Part shown: positions 2,847 to 8,941 of the stretch, one piece after another
Position numbering within the stretch: position 1 is the first letter of the stretch
Layout: each line of letters starts with the position of its first letter
DNA from: a virus
Length of the DNA: 64,000 nt
Direction: 5' to 3' (one strand)
Virus record (IMG/VR): IMGVR_UViG_3300024274_000264
Position numbers and translations under genes: made by a program
Notes under the pieces: generated by a model
Databases searched by the model: none
Seen by the model: only the letters and a program-made list of their open reading frames with translations
Told to the model about the DNA's origin: nothing

Positions 2847-3613
2847 CAACAATCATTCCTGTTTATAATGCAAAGCAATATATAGTAGAATGTATAAAAT
2901 CTGTTTTTTATCAAAAATTAGATCCAAATATCACAAATAAAATTTTTATTATTTACAATAATCCAACAGATGGAACCGAAATCGAATTATATTCTAAATT
3001 TTTGCAAAATTTAGAATCAGAAAAGATTAAGGAATCTTTTTTAATAAAAAATCAAATTGAATTTCAAGGAATTCCACAAACTAGAAATTTCGGATTTCAA
3101 TGTGTTTTTCATGAGGAAATCCAAAATGAAATAAAATATGACTTTATTGCAAATCAAGATGCTGACGATATTTGGATAGACGAATATAAATTGCAAAAAC
3201 AAGTATCTTTCTTACAGTCAAATAAAGAGATAGATATCTTAGGTACTCAATACATAGGAAGACATAAAAATGTTCAAACTAAACCTAAAGATTATATTCT
3301 ATTAGAAAGAAGACCTTTAGATCACGACGAATGTCTTTATTGGCTATTTAATGGATTAAATCCGATTGGAAATGCTTCTGTTTTATTTCGAAGAAATGTT
3401 GTAAGTAAAATTGGAATGTATGATGATATATTTCCTCTAACAGAAGATATGTGGTTCTGGTATAGAGCTGCTCTTGCTGGTTTAAAATTTTCAAATCTTG
3501 AAGATGATTGTCTGTTATATAACATGGGAAGTAATCCCAATTATTCTCCAAAATATCCAAAACTTTTCGCTGAAATGTTTAAATCAATTCTAGAAACAAG
3601 AAAACTTAAATAA
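2735..3613 (+). CDS. glycosyltransferase family 2 (true start probably near 2824)
   Basis: IIPVYNA, RN.G, QDADD, KLQKQ, EDMWFW. Confidence 0.85.
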   Translation: MDFSSTLGWEFGFRIDSRKYRSYPSNLYKVMDRSIRIATIIPVYNAKQYIVECIKSVFYQKLDPNITNKIFIIYNNPTDGTEIELYSKFLQNLESEKIKESFLIKNQIEFQGIPQTRNFGFQCVFHEEIQNEIKYDFIANQDADDIWIDEYKLQKQVSFLQSNKEIDILGTQYIGRHKNVQTKPKDYILLERRPLDHDECLYWLFNGLNPIGNASVLFRRNVVSKIGMYDDIFPLTEDMWFWYRAALAGLKFSNLEDDCLLYNMGSNPNYSPKYPKLFAEMFKSILETRKLK

Positions 3614-4641
3614 TGTTTACACTTTTAAAAATAGTACGTCACCCAATAGCAGATAAAATACAAACAATTTGTGACCAGTTGAATCTCGATTCAGATTTAG
3701 AGGTTGAAGATTTTTTAGAAAAAAATAAAAACATTAGCTCAATTTTAAAAAAAATTGAGACATTCGAAAACGCAAATTTCTATTATCAAAAGATCTTTAA
3801 AAGATCTAATTTCATATTAGATAATTTAGAATCATCAGAAGATTATCTGAATCTTGAAAATTTAAAAGATTTGTTAGAAGAATATAAAACTACTGGTGAT
3901 AAGCGAAATTTTCATATAATCGAGTCATTTTTACCAAAAACAGAAATTGCTTCCTATGACAGAATAACTTCTATTACTGGAAGGCAAAAAGTAATAAATG
4001 GTCCACAAATTTTAACTTTAAAAAAGGATGATCGAAAAAAAATTTTTAAAGATAAAAATCTCTACATGATAGACTTTTCGGCGCTAGAACCTTCGCTGCT
4101 TTTTCAAATTTTAGGATATGATGAATTAAACTATCAGGACCTTTATTTTTCAATAAAAACTAAATTAGGATTGAAATTTATAGAAAGAAGTGATATAAAA
4201 TCAGCGGTATTAAAAATTCTTTATGGTTCAAATATTGATCACATCAAAGAGATTAACCACGCTGAAAGTGAATTACTAGAAAATTTTCTTTTAAATGAAA
4301 AGTTTTTAAATTTTAAAAATGAATTATTGAATGCTTTATATGAGCAAGGACAGCTGTACAATCTTTTTGGAAAACCACTACTTTCTAAAGAACAAGCAGT
4401 TGAGGCAAATTTTCAACCTTATATGGTTGTAAATTATTACATTCAAAGTTCTGCCGCAGATTTATCACTTTTATTATTAAGTGATTTTTATAAAGACAAT
4501 ATGGATCATATCAATCCATTATTTGTAATTCATGATGCTTTACTTTTTTATGCTAAACCAAGTTTTAGTGTGGAAAATAATCTAAAATTAAGTTTTGAAA
4601 AATATAATATTTTCGCGAAAATTACTCGCGCAAACGAGTAA
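3613..4641 (+). CDS. short family A DNA polymerase-like protein (polymerase domain only)
   Basis: TGR, motif A DFSALEP, motif B K...LKILYG, NYYIQSSAAD, motif C IHDAL; no exonuclease domains. Confidence 0.75.
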   Translation: MFTLLKIVRHPIADKIQTICDQLNLDSDLEVEDFLEKNKNISSILKKIETFENANFYYQKIFKRSNFILDNLESSEDYLNLENLKDLLEEYKTTGDKRNFHIIESFLPKTEIASYDRITSITGRQKVINGPQILTLKKDDRKKIFKDKNLYMIDFSALEPSLLFQILGYDELNYQDLYFSIKTKLGLKFIERSDIKSAVLKILYGSNIDHIKEINHAESELLENFLLNEKFLNFKNELLNALYEQGQLYNLFGKPLLSKEQAVEANFQPYMVVNYYIQSSAADLSLLLLSDFYKDNMDHINPLFVIHDALLFYAKPSFSVENNLKLSFEKYNIFAKITRANE

Positions 4642-5661: not shown

Positions 5662-5686
5662 CCAAAAACCTATTTAAGGTTTTTTG

Positions 5687-5720
5687 AAGCCAAGTACTAA
5701 AAATACTTGGCTTTATTTTT
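5687..5720 (+). terminator. intrinsic terminator after SSB gene
   Basis: AAGCCAAGTA-ctaaaaa-TACTTGGCTT hairpin followed by a T-rich tract. Confidence 0.75.
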
Positions 5721-5766
5721 GTCTATTGTAAAATAATCCAAAGGAACAATAATAGAAGATAGAAAA

Positions 5767-6552
5767 ATGGCAAACATTAAAAAAGGCAACAAACAAGAAG
5801 TATCGCTTACTCCCAAAACCACAAATTTACTAGAGCCTCAAGAGCAAGCCTCTTCCAAAAGAATGGCAATTATTTCTGGAATCACTAAAGAAATAAACAA
5901 AACCCGCGGAGAAAAGATTGCTTATAATCTTAAAACAGATGACGATGCACCAACTAATGTAAAAAATTGGTTCTCAACATCAGCAATAAAATTAGACTAT
6001 ATTATTTCAAATAAAAGAAATGGAGGAATTCCAGAAGGAAGAATAATTGAAGTTTTTGGAGAACCTTCTTCTGGGAAATCAACTCTTGCGCAAACAATAT
6101 GCGCGCAGGCTCAAAAAAATGGGGCAATAGCAGTTTATATTGACTCTGAAAATGCAACATCTGTGGAGAATCTTGCGATGCTTGGAGTCAATACCGACGA
6201 ATTAATTTTCGTCCAAGAACAATGTATCGAAGATACATTTCAATTAATAGAACAAATAATCACCTCTGTTAAAAATCAAGATAACAATCTGCCAGTAATC
6301 ATCGTGTGGGACTCAGTAGCGGCTTCAGTTTCTAGAACCGAGTTAGAGGCAACCTACGAACAACAACAAATTGGAATCAAAGCTAGAGCTCTTAGCAAAG
6401 GTATTATGAAAGTTAATCAGATCTTGAAAGATAAAAGAGTCACACTCTTACTTGTTAATCAGACAAGACAAAAAATTGGTATCTTACATGGAGATGCTTG
6501 TGTTTCACCAGACACAAAAATTAAAATAAGAACAAAAATGTCAAATGGATGA
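5767..6552 (+). CDS. recA: RecA/UvsX N-terminal extein plus 17-aa N-intein
   Basis: GGIPEGRIIEVFGEPSSGKST, YIDSE, WDSVAA, LLVNQ.R.KIG; ends GDA|CVSPDTKIKIRTKMSNG. Confidence 0.92.
   Translation: MANIKKGNKQEVSLTPKTTNLLEPQEQASSKRMAIISGITKEINKTRGEKIAYNLKTDDDAPTNVKNWFSTSAIKLDYIISNKRNGGIPEGRIIEVFGEPSSGKSTLAQTICAQAQKNGAIAVYIDSENATSVENLAMLGVNTDELIFVQEQCIEDTFQLIEQIITSVKNQDNNLPVIIVWDSVAASVSRTELEATYEQQQIGIKARALSKGIMKVNQILKDKRVTLLLVNQTRQKIGILHGDACVSPDTKIKIRTKMSNG
6499..6549 (+). mobile_element. atypically short split-intein N fragment (RecA)
   Basis: CVSPDTKIKIR is intein block A, followed by a stop after 17 aa. Confidence 0.8.
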
Positions 6553-8431
6553 AAAAGATTATTTTAATTTCAAATTTACAATTAAGAAAAATAAACCAAT
6601 TTTTGAAATTAAACTAAAAGAAGAGTTTAAAATTTGTAAGCAAAATTATAAAGATGGGGAAATGCCGATTTCGACATCTTCTATAAGATATTTTTGTTTA
6701 TATTTCGAAAATTTACAAATAGCTGAAAAACTTTACAAGTTTTATAAATATTTTTTTAATAAAAAAAATGCCTATAAATGGTTTTTAAACAATAGATTAA
6801 TTTCAACTGAAGAGATTTCTTTTTGTGTTGAGTATTTTAAAAAAATTGAAGAGAAAATGATTTTTAATCATAAAAAAGTTATAAATTCAGAAGAATACAG
6901 AAGCACTCTAAAAAAGTCTTATAACCATGAACTTCAGTCTAAAATTAAGAAAAAATTATATCAAAATGAAGAATATAAATTAAAAGTTTATAAGGCTACT
7001 CAAAATCCTGAAGTGAAAAAAAGAAGAGTAGAATCTTATAAAAAATGGTTAACTAATGGAGGTATAGAACAATTAAAAATTGCAGCAAATAAACCAGAAA
7101 GAATAAAAAAAATTAGATATTGGTCAAAATTTTATGCGAATAAACTTCAAAGAGATCTTAATTTCCCAAAAAAATACGAACTAAATTCGTGTAAAATGAC
7201 TAAAATTGAATTTATTGTTGGAAATATTTTAAATGATTTAAAAATTAATTGGGAATATGAATCTCCATTATTGTTAGATAATAAATGGTTTTATCCTGAT
7301 TTTTCTTTAGGAAATAATTTAATAATTGAATGTTATGGAGATTATTGGCACGCAAATCCTGATAATACAAAAAGGGTAGATAAAGAAGAAGTTTGGGAAA
7401 AAGATAAAACAAGAATTGACACACTTGTAACTGATGGCTATAAAGTTCTGACACTTTGGGAATCTGAAATACTAAAACTAAAAAAAAGAGAAATACAAGA
7501 AAAAATAGAAAGATTTATAAAAATGGATATAGAAAATAACGTTTACAAAGAAGAAGAAGTTACTTTAAAAGATTTATTTGAAAGGTATGGTATTTCATCA
7601 TTTGATGAAGTCGGTATGTTGTCATTGAATGATGATATTGAAATTGAAAGTTACGATATTGTTCAAAATAAAACTGTATGGAGTAAATTAACAGATCTAG
7701 TCGTAAAACCTTCTGTTGATTCTTTTTATAGTCTAGGTTCTTTAAAAGGAACCGCAAATCATAAAGTCTGGTTTAACAATGGATGGATAGAATTAAAAGA
7801 TCATCCTGACGCTGTTAAAGTTGACGGCAAAATTGATGTTCTAGATCTTTCAGTAGAAAATACAAATTGTTACTTAGCTGAAGGTCAAATAAATCATAAT
7901 ACTACTACTCCTGGTGGTATGGCAATTCCATTTGCTGCGTCAGTTAGATTACGAGTTTATACCCCACAAAAAATCAAAGAGCTTGTCGAAAAACAAGAAA
8001 TTATAAAAGGGATTCAAGTTAGAGTAGCAACAGTTAAGAATAAAGTCGCAAGACCTTACAGACAAGCAGAGCTGCAAATTCTTTATGATAAAGGTATAAA
8101 TGATTACGAAATTCTTTTTGATGACCTCAGAGCTTTTTGTGAAACCCCAAAATATAAAGAAAATAGAGAAAAATGTGCAATAAATGGTATCTGTGCTAGT
8201 ATTTCTGGTGCAGGAGCTTGGAAAAAAATTGAATTAATTGATTGTTTAACGGGAGAAGTAAAAGGAGATAAAAGTTTTTATAAAGTAGATTTCGTTACAG
8301 TTTTTAACGATCCAAAATATAAAGAGTATATTTTAATGTTGTGTGACGGTGCCTTTATTCTAAGAGATAATGAGAAAGATGAAATTTCTGTAACAACTGG
8401 CATTCCAACTGATGAGCACAGCCTGGATTAA
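6545..8431 (+). CDS. recA: Vsr-like endonuclease fused to C-intein and RecA C-terminal extein
   Basis: YPDF..IIECYGDYWHANP..WESE, then intein GTANH...DLSVENTNCYLAEGQINHN|TTTPGGMAIPFAASVRL..KNKVARP. Confidence 0.9.
   Translation: MDEKDYFNFKFTIKKNKPIFEIKLKEEFKICKQNYKDGEMPISTSSIRYFCLYFENLQIAEKLYKFYKYFFNKKNAYKWFLNNRLISTEEISFCVEYFKKIEEKMIFNHKKVINSEEYRSTLKKSYNHELQSKIKKKLYQNEEYKLKVYKATQNPEVKKRRVESYKKWLTNGGIEQLKIAANKPERIKKIRYWSKFYANKLQRDLNFPKKYELNSCKMTKIEFIVGNILNDLKINWEYESPLLLDNKWFYPDFSLGNNLIIECYGDYWHANPDNTKRVDKEEVWEKDKTRIDTLVTDGYKVLTLWESEILKLKKREIQEKIERFIKMDIENNVYKEEEVTLKDLFERYGISSFDEVGMLSLNDDIEIESYDIVQNKTVWSKLTDLVVKPSVDSFYSLGSLKGTANHKVWFNNGWIELKDHPDAVKVDGKIDVLDLSVENTNCYLAEGQINHNTTTPGGMAIPFAASVRLRVYTPQKIKELVEKQEIIKGIQVRVATVKNKVARPYRQAELQILYDKGINDYEILFDDLRAFCETPKYKENREKCAINGICASISGAGAWKKIELIDCLTGEVKGDKSFYKVDFVTVFNDPKYKEYILMLCDGAFILRDNEKDEISVTTGIPTDEHSLD
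7523..7900 (+). mobile_element. large split-intein C fragment (RecA)
   Basis: Contains block B (GTANHKV), block F (VLDLSV) and terminal HN followed by Thr +1; begins at in-frame ATG 7523. Confidence 0.8.
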
Positions 8432-8467: not shown

Positions 8468-8941
8468 TTGCTAGGATTTAGTCATCCGACGATGATAAAT
8501 ATAAAATTCATTAAAGCACTAGAAGAGGCGAGAATGCCAGTAAAAGCACGCGATGCTGATGCGGCATTCGATTTGTTTTCAGCAGAAGAATGCATATTAC
8601 TTCCTGGCGAAACAAGAGCAGTTAATACTGGGTTAAAACTTGCCGATGTGGAAATAGATGATTCCATTTCTCGATTTCTTAAAATAGAAGGACGTTCGGG
8701 GCTTGCCTTGAAAAGAATTGTTCCTTCTGGTGGTATTATTGATATCTCTTTTAGAGGAGAAATAAAATGTATTATGAACAATAATAGCAATTATGCTCAT
8801 CAATTTAAAATTGGAGATAGAATTGCTCAAATGATAATTTATACAATTTCTTCTACTGCCCAAGAAGTAAATCTTTCTTTTACAGAAACTGCAACAGAAA
8901 CGACAAGAGGAGCAAATGGATTTGGATCAACAGGAATCTAA
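8468..8941 (+). CDS. dut: dUTPase
   Basis: AAFDL, RSGLA, GIID..FRGEI, GDRIAQ, RGANGFGSTG. Confidence 0.95.
   Translation: MLGFSHPTMINIKFIKALEEARMPVKARDADAAFDLFSAEECILLPGETRAVNTGLKLADVEIDDSISRFLKIEGRSGLALKRIVPSGGIIDISFRGEIKCIMNNNSNYAHQFKIGDRIAQMIIYTISSTAQEVNLSFTETATETTRGANGFGSTGI

Follow-up and report, generated by a model that had tools for sequence, protein, structure and literature searches.

The stretch analysed here (the window) comprises 64,000 nucleotides of the virus record IMGVR_UViG_3300024274_000264, and at positions 5767-8431 it carries a phage recA gene that is broken into two overlapping open reading frames (ORFs). We consider it very probable that this recA is fractured by a split intein with a short N-terminal part (IntN), that its halves are joined by trans-splicing, and that two alternative precursors supply the C-terminal half. 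ORF1 (5767-6552, 261 aa) encodes the N-terminal part of RecA (RecA-N), followed by the 17-residue IntN CVSPDTKIKIRTKMSNG and a stop codon. ORF2 (6545-8431, 628 aa) encodes in one frame a Vsr-like nuclease, the intein's C-terminal portion (IntC) and the C-terminal portion of RecA (RecA-C). It starts 8 nt before the stop of ORF1, within the last codons of that gene (ATGGATGA) and in the +1 frame. The features of the locus are as follows:

5767-6498, + strand: RecA N-extein, residues 1-244, ending KIGILHGDA (Pfam RecA, PHROG 97; dN/dS 0.04 against L002, a related contig)
6499-6552, + strand: IntN, 17 codons (CVSPDTKIKIRTKMSNG) and a TGA stop
6545-6552, + strand: overlap of ORF1 and ORF2 (ATGGATGA), with the start codon of the nuclease inside the end of ORF1, +1 frame
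6545-7522, + strand: Vsr-like (EDxHD-type) nuclease, ORF2 residues 1-326, with no stop at its end
7172-7522, + strand: nuclease domain proper, ORF2 residues ~210-326
7523-7525, + strand: in-frame ATG (Met327) at the nuclease/IntC joint, candidate start of an IntC-RecA-C product
7523-7900, + strand: IntC, 126 residues (ORF2 327-452), with blocks B, F and G, ending INHN
7901-8431, + strand: RecA C-extein, 176 residues (ORF2 453-628) from TTTPGG, and stop (dN/dS 0.08)

The two halves of RecA fit together without gap or overlap. Pfam RecA matched ORF1 at model positions 6-199 (E = 1.5e-38), and ORF1 also matched the UvsX-like PHROG 97 at 1e-51. Meanwhile, the match of ORF2 begins at residue 453 and covers model positions 200-262 (8.9e-13). 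Therefore, both ORFs break at one exact point of RecA, and when the insert is removed in silico the joint reads KIGILHGDA-TTTPGG. By comparison with the RecA L2 sequence, we take this point to lie in the L2 DNA-binding loop. The L2 loop is known as an insertion site of inteins (PMC3239194). These boundaries bear out the initial annotation, which had ended RecA-N at GDA, ahead of an IntN and a stop, had read the overlapping ORF as a Vsr-like nuclease in frame with an IntC of about 126 aa and RecA-C (ORF2 residues 1-326, 327-452 and 453-628), and had predicted this joint at L2; the intein-less relative P0012 is continuous there.

The break between the frames is genuine and not a sequencing artefact. 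Two Logan contigs from other runs (L001 and L002, 92% protein identity) carry the same genes of 261 and 628 aa. At the joint they differ from the window by substitutions, some of them inside the A-run, and by no indel (in L001 the overlap is ATGAATGA and the A-run region ACAAAATTATCAAATGAATGA). Contigs from four further wastewater or activated-sludge runs, from four studies, also cross 6530-6552 without an indel, and the count over seven independent assemblies is zero. The initial annotation had named a continuous frame as what would speak against a split intein, and had proposed a check for frameshifting near 6545; a continuous frame was looked for, and neither L001, L002 nor the four further runs displayed an indel. 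The relatives of this locus display yet other arrangements. Relative to RecA-N, the nuclease lies in the +1 frame in the window and in the +2 frame in L009, L003 and L012, and the junction between RecA-N and the nuclease is a 2-nt gap in L009, a 62-nt gap in L003, an ATGA overlap in L012 and an 8-nt overlap in L006. Relatives that have lost the nuclease carry a non-coding spacer of ~150 nt between the halves. Hence, no common frameshift device explains all of these forms. The hairpin at the nuclease start (6518-6570) is not significant (-10.7 kcal/mol, z -1.67, with 12 of 200 shuffles as stable).

These observations bear directly on the alternative that the intein is uninterrupted, the break being an assembly or homopolymer error or a programmed +1 frameshift at 6530-6552, and that an 889-residue precursor splices in cis. 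The frame of ORF2 is open only from 6530, so a one-base slip in ACAAAAATG would indeed join the two frames. However, the A-run is broken in L001 (ACAAAATTA) and both frames are still kept, and the expected length of ~890 residues was found in none of the best 150 of the 165 related clusters. Together with the seven assemblies free of indels, the differing frames, gaps and overlaps of the window, L009, L003 and L012, and the non-coding spacer of the nuclease-deleted forms, this makes cis-splicing extremely unlikely. Sequencing error and programmed frameshift were both discarded, on the assemblies without indel and on the differing frames of the relatives.

The split intein of the window displays the motifs of a splicing domain divided unevenly over its two pieces. 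IntN holds block A only, and blocks B (GTANH), F (VLDLSVENTNCYLA) and G (QINHN, followed by T) all lie in IntC. Residues C245, V246, P248, T250, I254 and R255 are invariant in seven IntN-bearing relatives, and 13 homologues all share H80, D108, H125 and N126 (IntC numbering). The catalytic set of a class 1 intein as a whole, namely C245, T77-x-x-H80, D108, H125-N126 and Thr+1, is invariant or nearly so (7 IntN and 13-14 IntC homologues). A Hint fold is present in the AlphaFold model of the uninterrupted homologue P0003 (pLDDT 88.7, pTM 0.82), which is 54-68% identical to the window intein; the two-piece intein of the window was itself modelled only as a complex. Foldseek matched the P0003 model to 35 PDB chains at E<=0.001, and among those listed all were inteins except four related Hint-fold domains. 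The best match was Ssp DnaB (1mi8, 6.8e-6), and Pho RadA, VidaL (6vgv; 2.8e-4, 17% identity) and PolB16 were also retrieved. The family profile matched the Spl DnaX mini-intein among PDB sequences at 3.8e-6, and it gave no match to VidaL.

In the P0003 model a turn comes after the strand KIKIRK and leads to a second strand that runs into a helix, and the break of the window falls in this turn. The model thus places the split at the 'S1' position, after strand beta-2, as in VidaL and PolB16. The predicted complex of the ORF1 tail and IntC scored 0.74, against 0.00 for the best control; among reference pairs, 58 of 80 solved complexes and 2 of 110 mismatched ones reach that mark. At least 72% of the contacts are common to the runs, with a partner pLDDT of at least 55. 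The predicted interface sets residues 242-258, at IntN, against the first strand and blocks B, F and G of IntC, with residues 250-254 paired to IntC 10-16 and Cys1 adjoining the three blocks. IntN is therefore predicted to dock on IntC, a pass that may partly owe to the likeness of this intein to solved ones.

The six IntN tails that were read are all short, with 17 residues in the window, 14 in L009 (CVSPETKVRIRKPI), 15 in both L003 and L012, 16 in L006 and 18 in L004; the upstream ORF of L013 is cut by the end of its contig. The ORFs that bear them span 3234-3998 in L009, 3210-3938 in L003 and 1761-2504 in L012. According to PMC13014065, natural short-IntN split inteins have an IntN of ~15-37 residues that holds block A only, and the record is the 15-residue IntN of PolB16.

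The first 326 residues of ORF2 can be aligned over their whole length with stand-alone nucleases (334-357 aa; P0016, P0124 and P0125), and these stand-alone homologues exceed the threshold of Pfam DUF559. The profile of the nuclease family matches Vsr of E. coli at 8e-5, across the PDF...G-x-x-WH core. The model of the nuclease (pLDDT 75) has its best Foldseek match in the catalytic domain of I-Bth0305I (3r3p, E = 2.5e-5, TM 0.78, 26% identity), followed by Vsr itself (1cw0, 1.6e-3). Residues P251-D252-F253 and E262-C-Y-G-D266-x-W-H269 are invariant in six nuclease homologues. The label 'Vsr-like' of the initial annotation is upheld by these profile and fold matches, which identify the protein as a Vsr-like (EDxHD-type) homing endonuclease of predicted activity. 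By the fold comparison, its closest characterised relative is the recA-targeting homing enzyme I-Bth0305I. Its N-terminal 200 residues are predicted to form a beta-hairpin and long helices (~47-200), and they have no family match. The nuclease has a start codon of its own (6545) and no stop of its own, so that its frame runs into IntC. It had been reported to lie directly after block A, in frame with IntC and away from the canonical endonuclease site, and the layout of ORF2 agrees with this.

Relatives were retrieved through protein index searches and contig look-ups. Syntenic phage contigs, which share PolA, a gp32-like SSB, recA, dUTPase, a 5'-3' exonuclease and DnaB, carry all forms of this locus:

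No intein: P0012/L018
Uninterrupted mini-intein of 136-139 aa at the same point: P0003/L017 and P0004-P0011
Three genes, namely RecA-N with an IntN of 14-15 aa, a stand-alone Vsr-like nuclease, and IntC-RecA-C: L009/L010 and L003
Nuclease fused in frame to IntC: the window, L001 and L002
Nuclease decayed or deleted, intein still split: L006-L008 and L004/L005

P0012 (422 aa, RecA-C 77% identical) reads GGDP-TVTPGG across the empty site. The exteins of L017, with an uninterrupted intein, and of L018, with none, are 90-95% identical at the nucleotide level. In the three-gene form, the 3' end of the nuclease gene overlaps the start of IntC by 14 nt in another frame. L006-L008 retain two pieces of the nuclease, an N-terminal one of 49 aa and a C-terminal one whose frame still continues into IntC. 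In L004/L005, the last ~60 nt of the nuclease gene serve as the leader of a 302-aa IntC-RecA-C gene.

A search with an IntC-only profile against 1.84 billion representatives retrieved 165 clusters at E<=0.001, 69 of them at E<=1e-10. The matches listed included ~40 stand-alone IntC-RecA-C clusters, ~13 uninterrupted mini-intein RecAs and several RecAs with two inteins, indicating that the split form dominates this intein family. Three nuclease-IntC-RecA-C fusions were among the matches listed (the window type, P0251 of 586 aa and P0268 of 640 aa), and the nuclease-IntC fusion recurs in two distant lineages. In an exploratory FastTree of IntC-RecA-C, which offers a hint only, uninterrupted, split and fused forms are interleaved. 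The initial annotation had described short-IntN inteins as rare. The atypical split with a 17-aa IntN stands, but the rarity does not fit a large metagenomic family with ~40 stand-alone clusters. Natural short-IntN inteins with this split position, VidaL and PolB16, have already been characterised.

The absence of a stop between nuclease and IntC raises the matter of how RecA-C is made, for which the initial annotation had offered either a nuclease-IntC by-product or a bypass through ATG 7523. Comparison with the relatives supports each of these options, the former through the fusion of L012 and the latter through the start codon of L004/L005. The IntC-RecA-C gene in L004/L005, whose leader corresponds to 7461-7522 of the window, has a start codon that is the orthologue of ATG 7523; this ATG is kept in L001 and L002. 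The RNA around ATG 7523 is A-rich and unstructured, like many starts of this phage that have no Shine-Dalgarno (SD) motif. About half of the larger + strand ORFs of the window have no Shine-Dalgarno-like motif and A-rich leaders, the others displaying AAGGA or GAGGT; this mixture suggests a host with weak Shine-Dalgarno dependence. The absence of the motif at ATG 7523 is, for that reason, uninformative. Meanwhile, the in-frame fusion is kept in the window, L001 and L002, as well as in the L006 remnant. The contig L012 (152.8 kb) has the same synteny and an IntN of 15 aa, and it encodes a 640-aa fusion with the joint VIDSSKFLIEEISL, which contains no ATG, GTG or TTG. The fusion must then be the sole source of RecA-C in L012, and must itself splice. 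The N-terminus of the modelled IntC is located on the surface, at the turn that holds the chain break, a geometry that allows a fused precursor. On this comparative evidence, we think that the C-terminal precursor of the window probably arises in both ways, as the 628-residue fusion and from a start at ATG 7523.

A wastewater contig from run X5 (depth 17) misses one T at 6691, in the T-run 6691-6695, and its IntC-RecA-C is intact. This deletion would stop the nuclease frame after ~58 residues, and that strain would consequently rely on the internal start. The single contig could represent a strain with a dead nuclease that uses ATG 7523, or an assembly error.

It could also be that only the 302-residue product of ATG 7523 splices, read-through into 628 residues being unproductive or rare and the missing nuclease stop having no function. 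ATG 7523 and its leader are a genuine start region in the nuclease-deleted relatives, the surrounding RNA is unstructured and A-rich as at other starts without SD, and the X5 deletion would leave the internal start only. Set against this, the X5 deletion comes from one contig, the in-frame state is kept in the window, L001, L002 and the L006 remnant, fusions occur in two distant lineages, and the joint of L012 has no start codon. We therefore regard this restriction to the shorter product as unlikely.

A more tentative proposal, which we hold as a possibility and would not press, is that the fusion is a selected state and no accident. The nuclease frame would be part of the only route to RecA-C, shielding the nuclease from decay, and the fusion would represent a half-way step, with one flank lost, towards an intein domain. 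If so, the shielding would be strict in alleles of the L012 type, whose joint offers no start codon, and the nuclease-IntC, once released and bound by IntN, would form a two-domain intein that is nicked and has its Vsr-like nuclease away from the canonical site.

Taken together, the allele series suggests how the locus of the window may have formed and how it would work. A mini-intein would first have settled in the codons of the RecA L2 loop, and a free-standing Vsr-like homing endonuclease gene would then have invaded it at the hairpin turn after the second beta-strand. The invading gene's 5' end would provide the stop that closes RecA-N and the 17-residue IntN, and the nuclease, since its own stop is absent, runs in frame into the 126-residue IntC and RecA-C. 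Upon translation, the IntN strand would pair with the first strand of IntC and complete the Hint fold, and trans-splicing would proceed through Cys1, the His of block B, the terminal His-Asn and Thr+1. The expected product is a RecA of 420 residues with the joint ...KIGILHGDA-TTTPGG.... The route through the 628-residue precursor would free a nuclease-IntC by-product, equivalent to a nicked two-domain intein, and the alternative precursor would be the 302-residue IntC-RecA-C begun at ATG 7523.

Several points weigh against this proposal. No peptide or protein data were found for splicing. The Hint-fold model is that of a homologue 54-68% identical to the window intein and not of the window protein itself, and Pfam Intein_splicing recognises only blocks F and G in the IntC of the window, at 22 bits versus a cut-off of 35.8. 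Thr is the least common nucleophile at the +1 position. The nuclease domain likewise stays under the DUF559 threshold (14.3 versus 20.6 bits). A domain of 326 residues on the N-terminus of IntC could slow or block the docking of IntN. Finally, contigs from RNA libraries span both joints but may be carried-over DNA, and transcription is not thereby shown.

The gene could alternatively be broken without any splicing, either because RecA is dispensable and decaying in this phage, or because the halves are held together non-covalently by the intein pieces. There is a precedent in NrdA of phage Aeh1, which is fragmented and reported to assemble without splicing (PMC3045599). Against decay, the exteins have dN/dS ratios of 0.04-0.08, IntC has one of 0.17 and the nuclease has ratios of 0.10-0.26, values that place all parts under purifying selection and indicate that none is decaying; selection on both exteins and IntC is strong. 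The catalytic residues of the intein are invariant across relatives that are ~30-85% identical. In addition, the virus record (390,884 bp, with direct terminal repeats) is rated 100% complete, and its only RecA matches are the pieces in ORF1 and ORF2. RecA would also probably be disabled if the intein stayed in its L2 DNA-binding loop. Thus, a recA that remains unspliced appears very unlikely.

The substitution patterns suggest, beyond constraint, that the intein and nuclease move as a unit. Between the window and L002, dS is 0.79-0.87 in the exteins and 0.23-0.24 in the intein and nuclease; this unit has diverged much less than the recA that hosts it, a pattern suggestive of recent mobility. 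Between the window and L001, RecA-N differs at 2 of 732 nt and IntC plus RecA-C at none of 906 nt, while the 642 nt that cover IntN and nuclease codons 1-200 contain 93 differences (within 6480-7150). This divergence of the 5' half looks like a recombination patch confined to the mobile element. Judging from these comparisons, the intein-nuclease element is probably mobile. No second copy of the nuclease was found in the 390,884-bp genome.

The closest known arrangement is that of the fractured genes of environmental phages, which are broken by split inteins, with a Vsr-like endonuclease gene separating the two parts (Dassa, London, Stoddard, Schueler-Furman & Pietrokovski 2009, PMC2677866). 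As in those genes, the window has a DNA-metabolism gene and a nuclease on the same strand, whose 5' end makes the upstream stop and whose 3' end abuts the start of IntC, and nuclease-less derivatives exist. That exact three-gene form is seen in L009 and L003, in which a free nuclease ORF has its own start and stop and overlaps IntC by 14 nt. The window differs in that its nuclease is stopless and in frame with IntC, whereas the fractured genes have overlaps of 6-69 bp, and in that its break lies after the second strand and not at the canonical split position. The nuclease of the window lacks its 3' flank, and such a loss of nuclease flanks (step IIIa) is put forward in that paper as a hypothesis only. 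In term searches of the paper, the fractured hosts retrieved were gp41, NrdA/NrdJ, IMPDH, DnaE and DNA ligase, with recA appearing in it only as a group I intron host.

Among split inteins, a close counterpart is VidaL, which is natural and atypically split and has an IntN of 16 aa (PDB 6vgv; Burton et al. 2020, as cited in PMC13014065). We took its sequence from the supplement of PMC10264447 and compared it by eye and through 6vgv. The chain is broken between ...VVQIRLTKG and MIEKKVTVQELRELY in VidaL, and between ...KIKIRTKMSNG and MDIENNVYKEEEVTLKDLFERY in the window, which is the same position after beta-strand 2. Both begin with Cys1, and their Hint folds superpose with TM 0.64-0.65 (6vgv versus the P0003 model). 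The window intein is nonetheless not a VidaL allele, with 17% identity between VidaL and the window family in the structural alignment. The +1 residue is Thr in the window and Ser in VidaL, the host site of the window is the RecA L2 loop, and the window allele adds a fused nuclease. PolB16 resembles the window in split position and IntN length, and differs from it in sequence and host site.

The nuclease also has precedents in other contexts. I-Bth0305I, the EDxHD prototype, resides in a group I intron of a phage recA and has a target that extends across RecA L2 (Taylor et al. 2011, PMC3239194). The window nuclease shares its Vsr-like catalytic core and its residence in a phage recA. Unlike I-Bth0305I, which is intron-encoded and a free protein, it lies inside an intein and is fused to IntC, and its N-terminal region (~47-200) has no family match. 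In the standard order of intein blocks, the canonical site of a nested nuclease is between blocks B and F. All nested nuclease domains of inteins occupy one conserved site, according to the abstract of PMC6801210. The spliced-out nuclease-IntC together with IntN would be a Hint domain with a homing nuclease, as in two-domain inteins such as PI-SceI; in contrast to these, the window nuclease follows block A, belongs to the Vsr-like class, and has its chain nicked on the N-terminal side. Actinobacterial RecA inteins of the M. leprae type (P0110, NCBI 'intein-containing recombinase RecA') are also located in the L2 loop. These are inserted after KIGVMFG, three codons upstream of the window site, and they are uninterrupted and have LAGLIDADG domains.

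The fractured-gene layout and the S1 split position were already known, and the window carries a genuine variant of them, in which a stopless Vsr-like nuclease is fused to IntC. A literature search that key subscription papers lay outside returned no paper on a short-IntN family at the L2 site, nor on IntC fused to a Vsr-like nuclease. Few natural split inteins have an IntN of peptide-synthesis length, namely VidaL, PolB16, AceL and GOS TerL (PMC13014065). The RecA L2 family adds dozens of diverged natural short-IntN alleles with Cys1 and Thr+1, along with uninterrupted close relatives for comparison. One syntenic gene spans the life cycle of such an element, from the empty site through the mini-intein, the fracturing invasion and the nuclease-IntC fusion to decay and loss that leave a split gene behind. 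With the fused form one can examine in natural material whether free nuclease genes turn into intein domains by shedding one flank after the other, and whether a second site of the Hint fold can house a nuclease. If protein splicing takes place as proposed, this 391-kb phage relies on it for its sole RecA.

Metagenomes of bioreactors, wastewater and activated sludge, from six studies or more, contain the phage. A DNA search of isolated phage genomes gave no match to the locus, a protein search gave distant RecA and nuclease matches only, and a scan of viral contigs with ORF2 peptide patterns gave no match. The upstream flank of recA contains the following candidate signals, each a consensus match only:

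5685-5715, + strand: terminator-like hairpin of the upstream gene
5707-5734 and 5726-5753, + strand: two promoter-like sites

Judged by these matches, the recA transcription unit probably starts in the region 5685-5753. There are no promoter-like consensus sites on the + strand between 6003 and 8304 and no terminator-like sites inside the recA unit. Promoter-like sites are as numerous as expected from shuffled sequence, which makes the search for an internal promoter before 7523 uninformative. Downstream, the dUTPase ORF (8468-8941) is given a TTG start at 8468. Its orthologue in L001 is called 22 codons shorter (135 aa), suggesting that the real start of the dUTPase is probably an internal ATG.

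Some related phage RecAs carry two inteins (P0245, P0267, P0278 and P0286). P0278 and P0286 have one at Walker A and one at L2, and the two inteins of P0245 are only seven extein residues apart (TLYGDPT). Three further proteins (P0241, P0242 and P0259) begin with an apparent C-part of an upstream split intein (...SHN, followed by T), after which come 6-7 extein residues, an uninterrupted L2 intein and RecA-C. These sequences suggest that such phages may build RecA from pieces joined by two different inteins. Next to the fused-type recA of L013, the DnaB helicase gene (3377-4320) has a LAGLIDADG intein (Pfam Hom_end_hint and LAGLIDADG_3), and the replication genes of this phage group seem to be rich in inteins.

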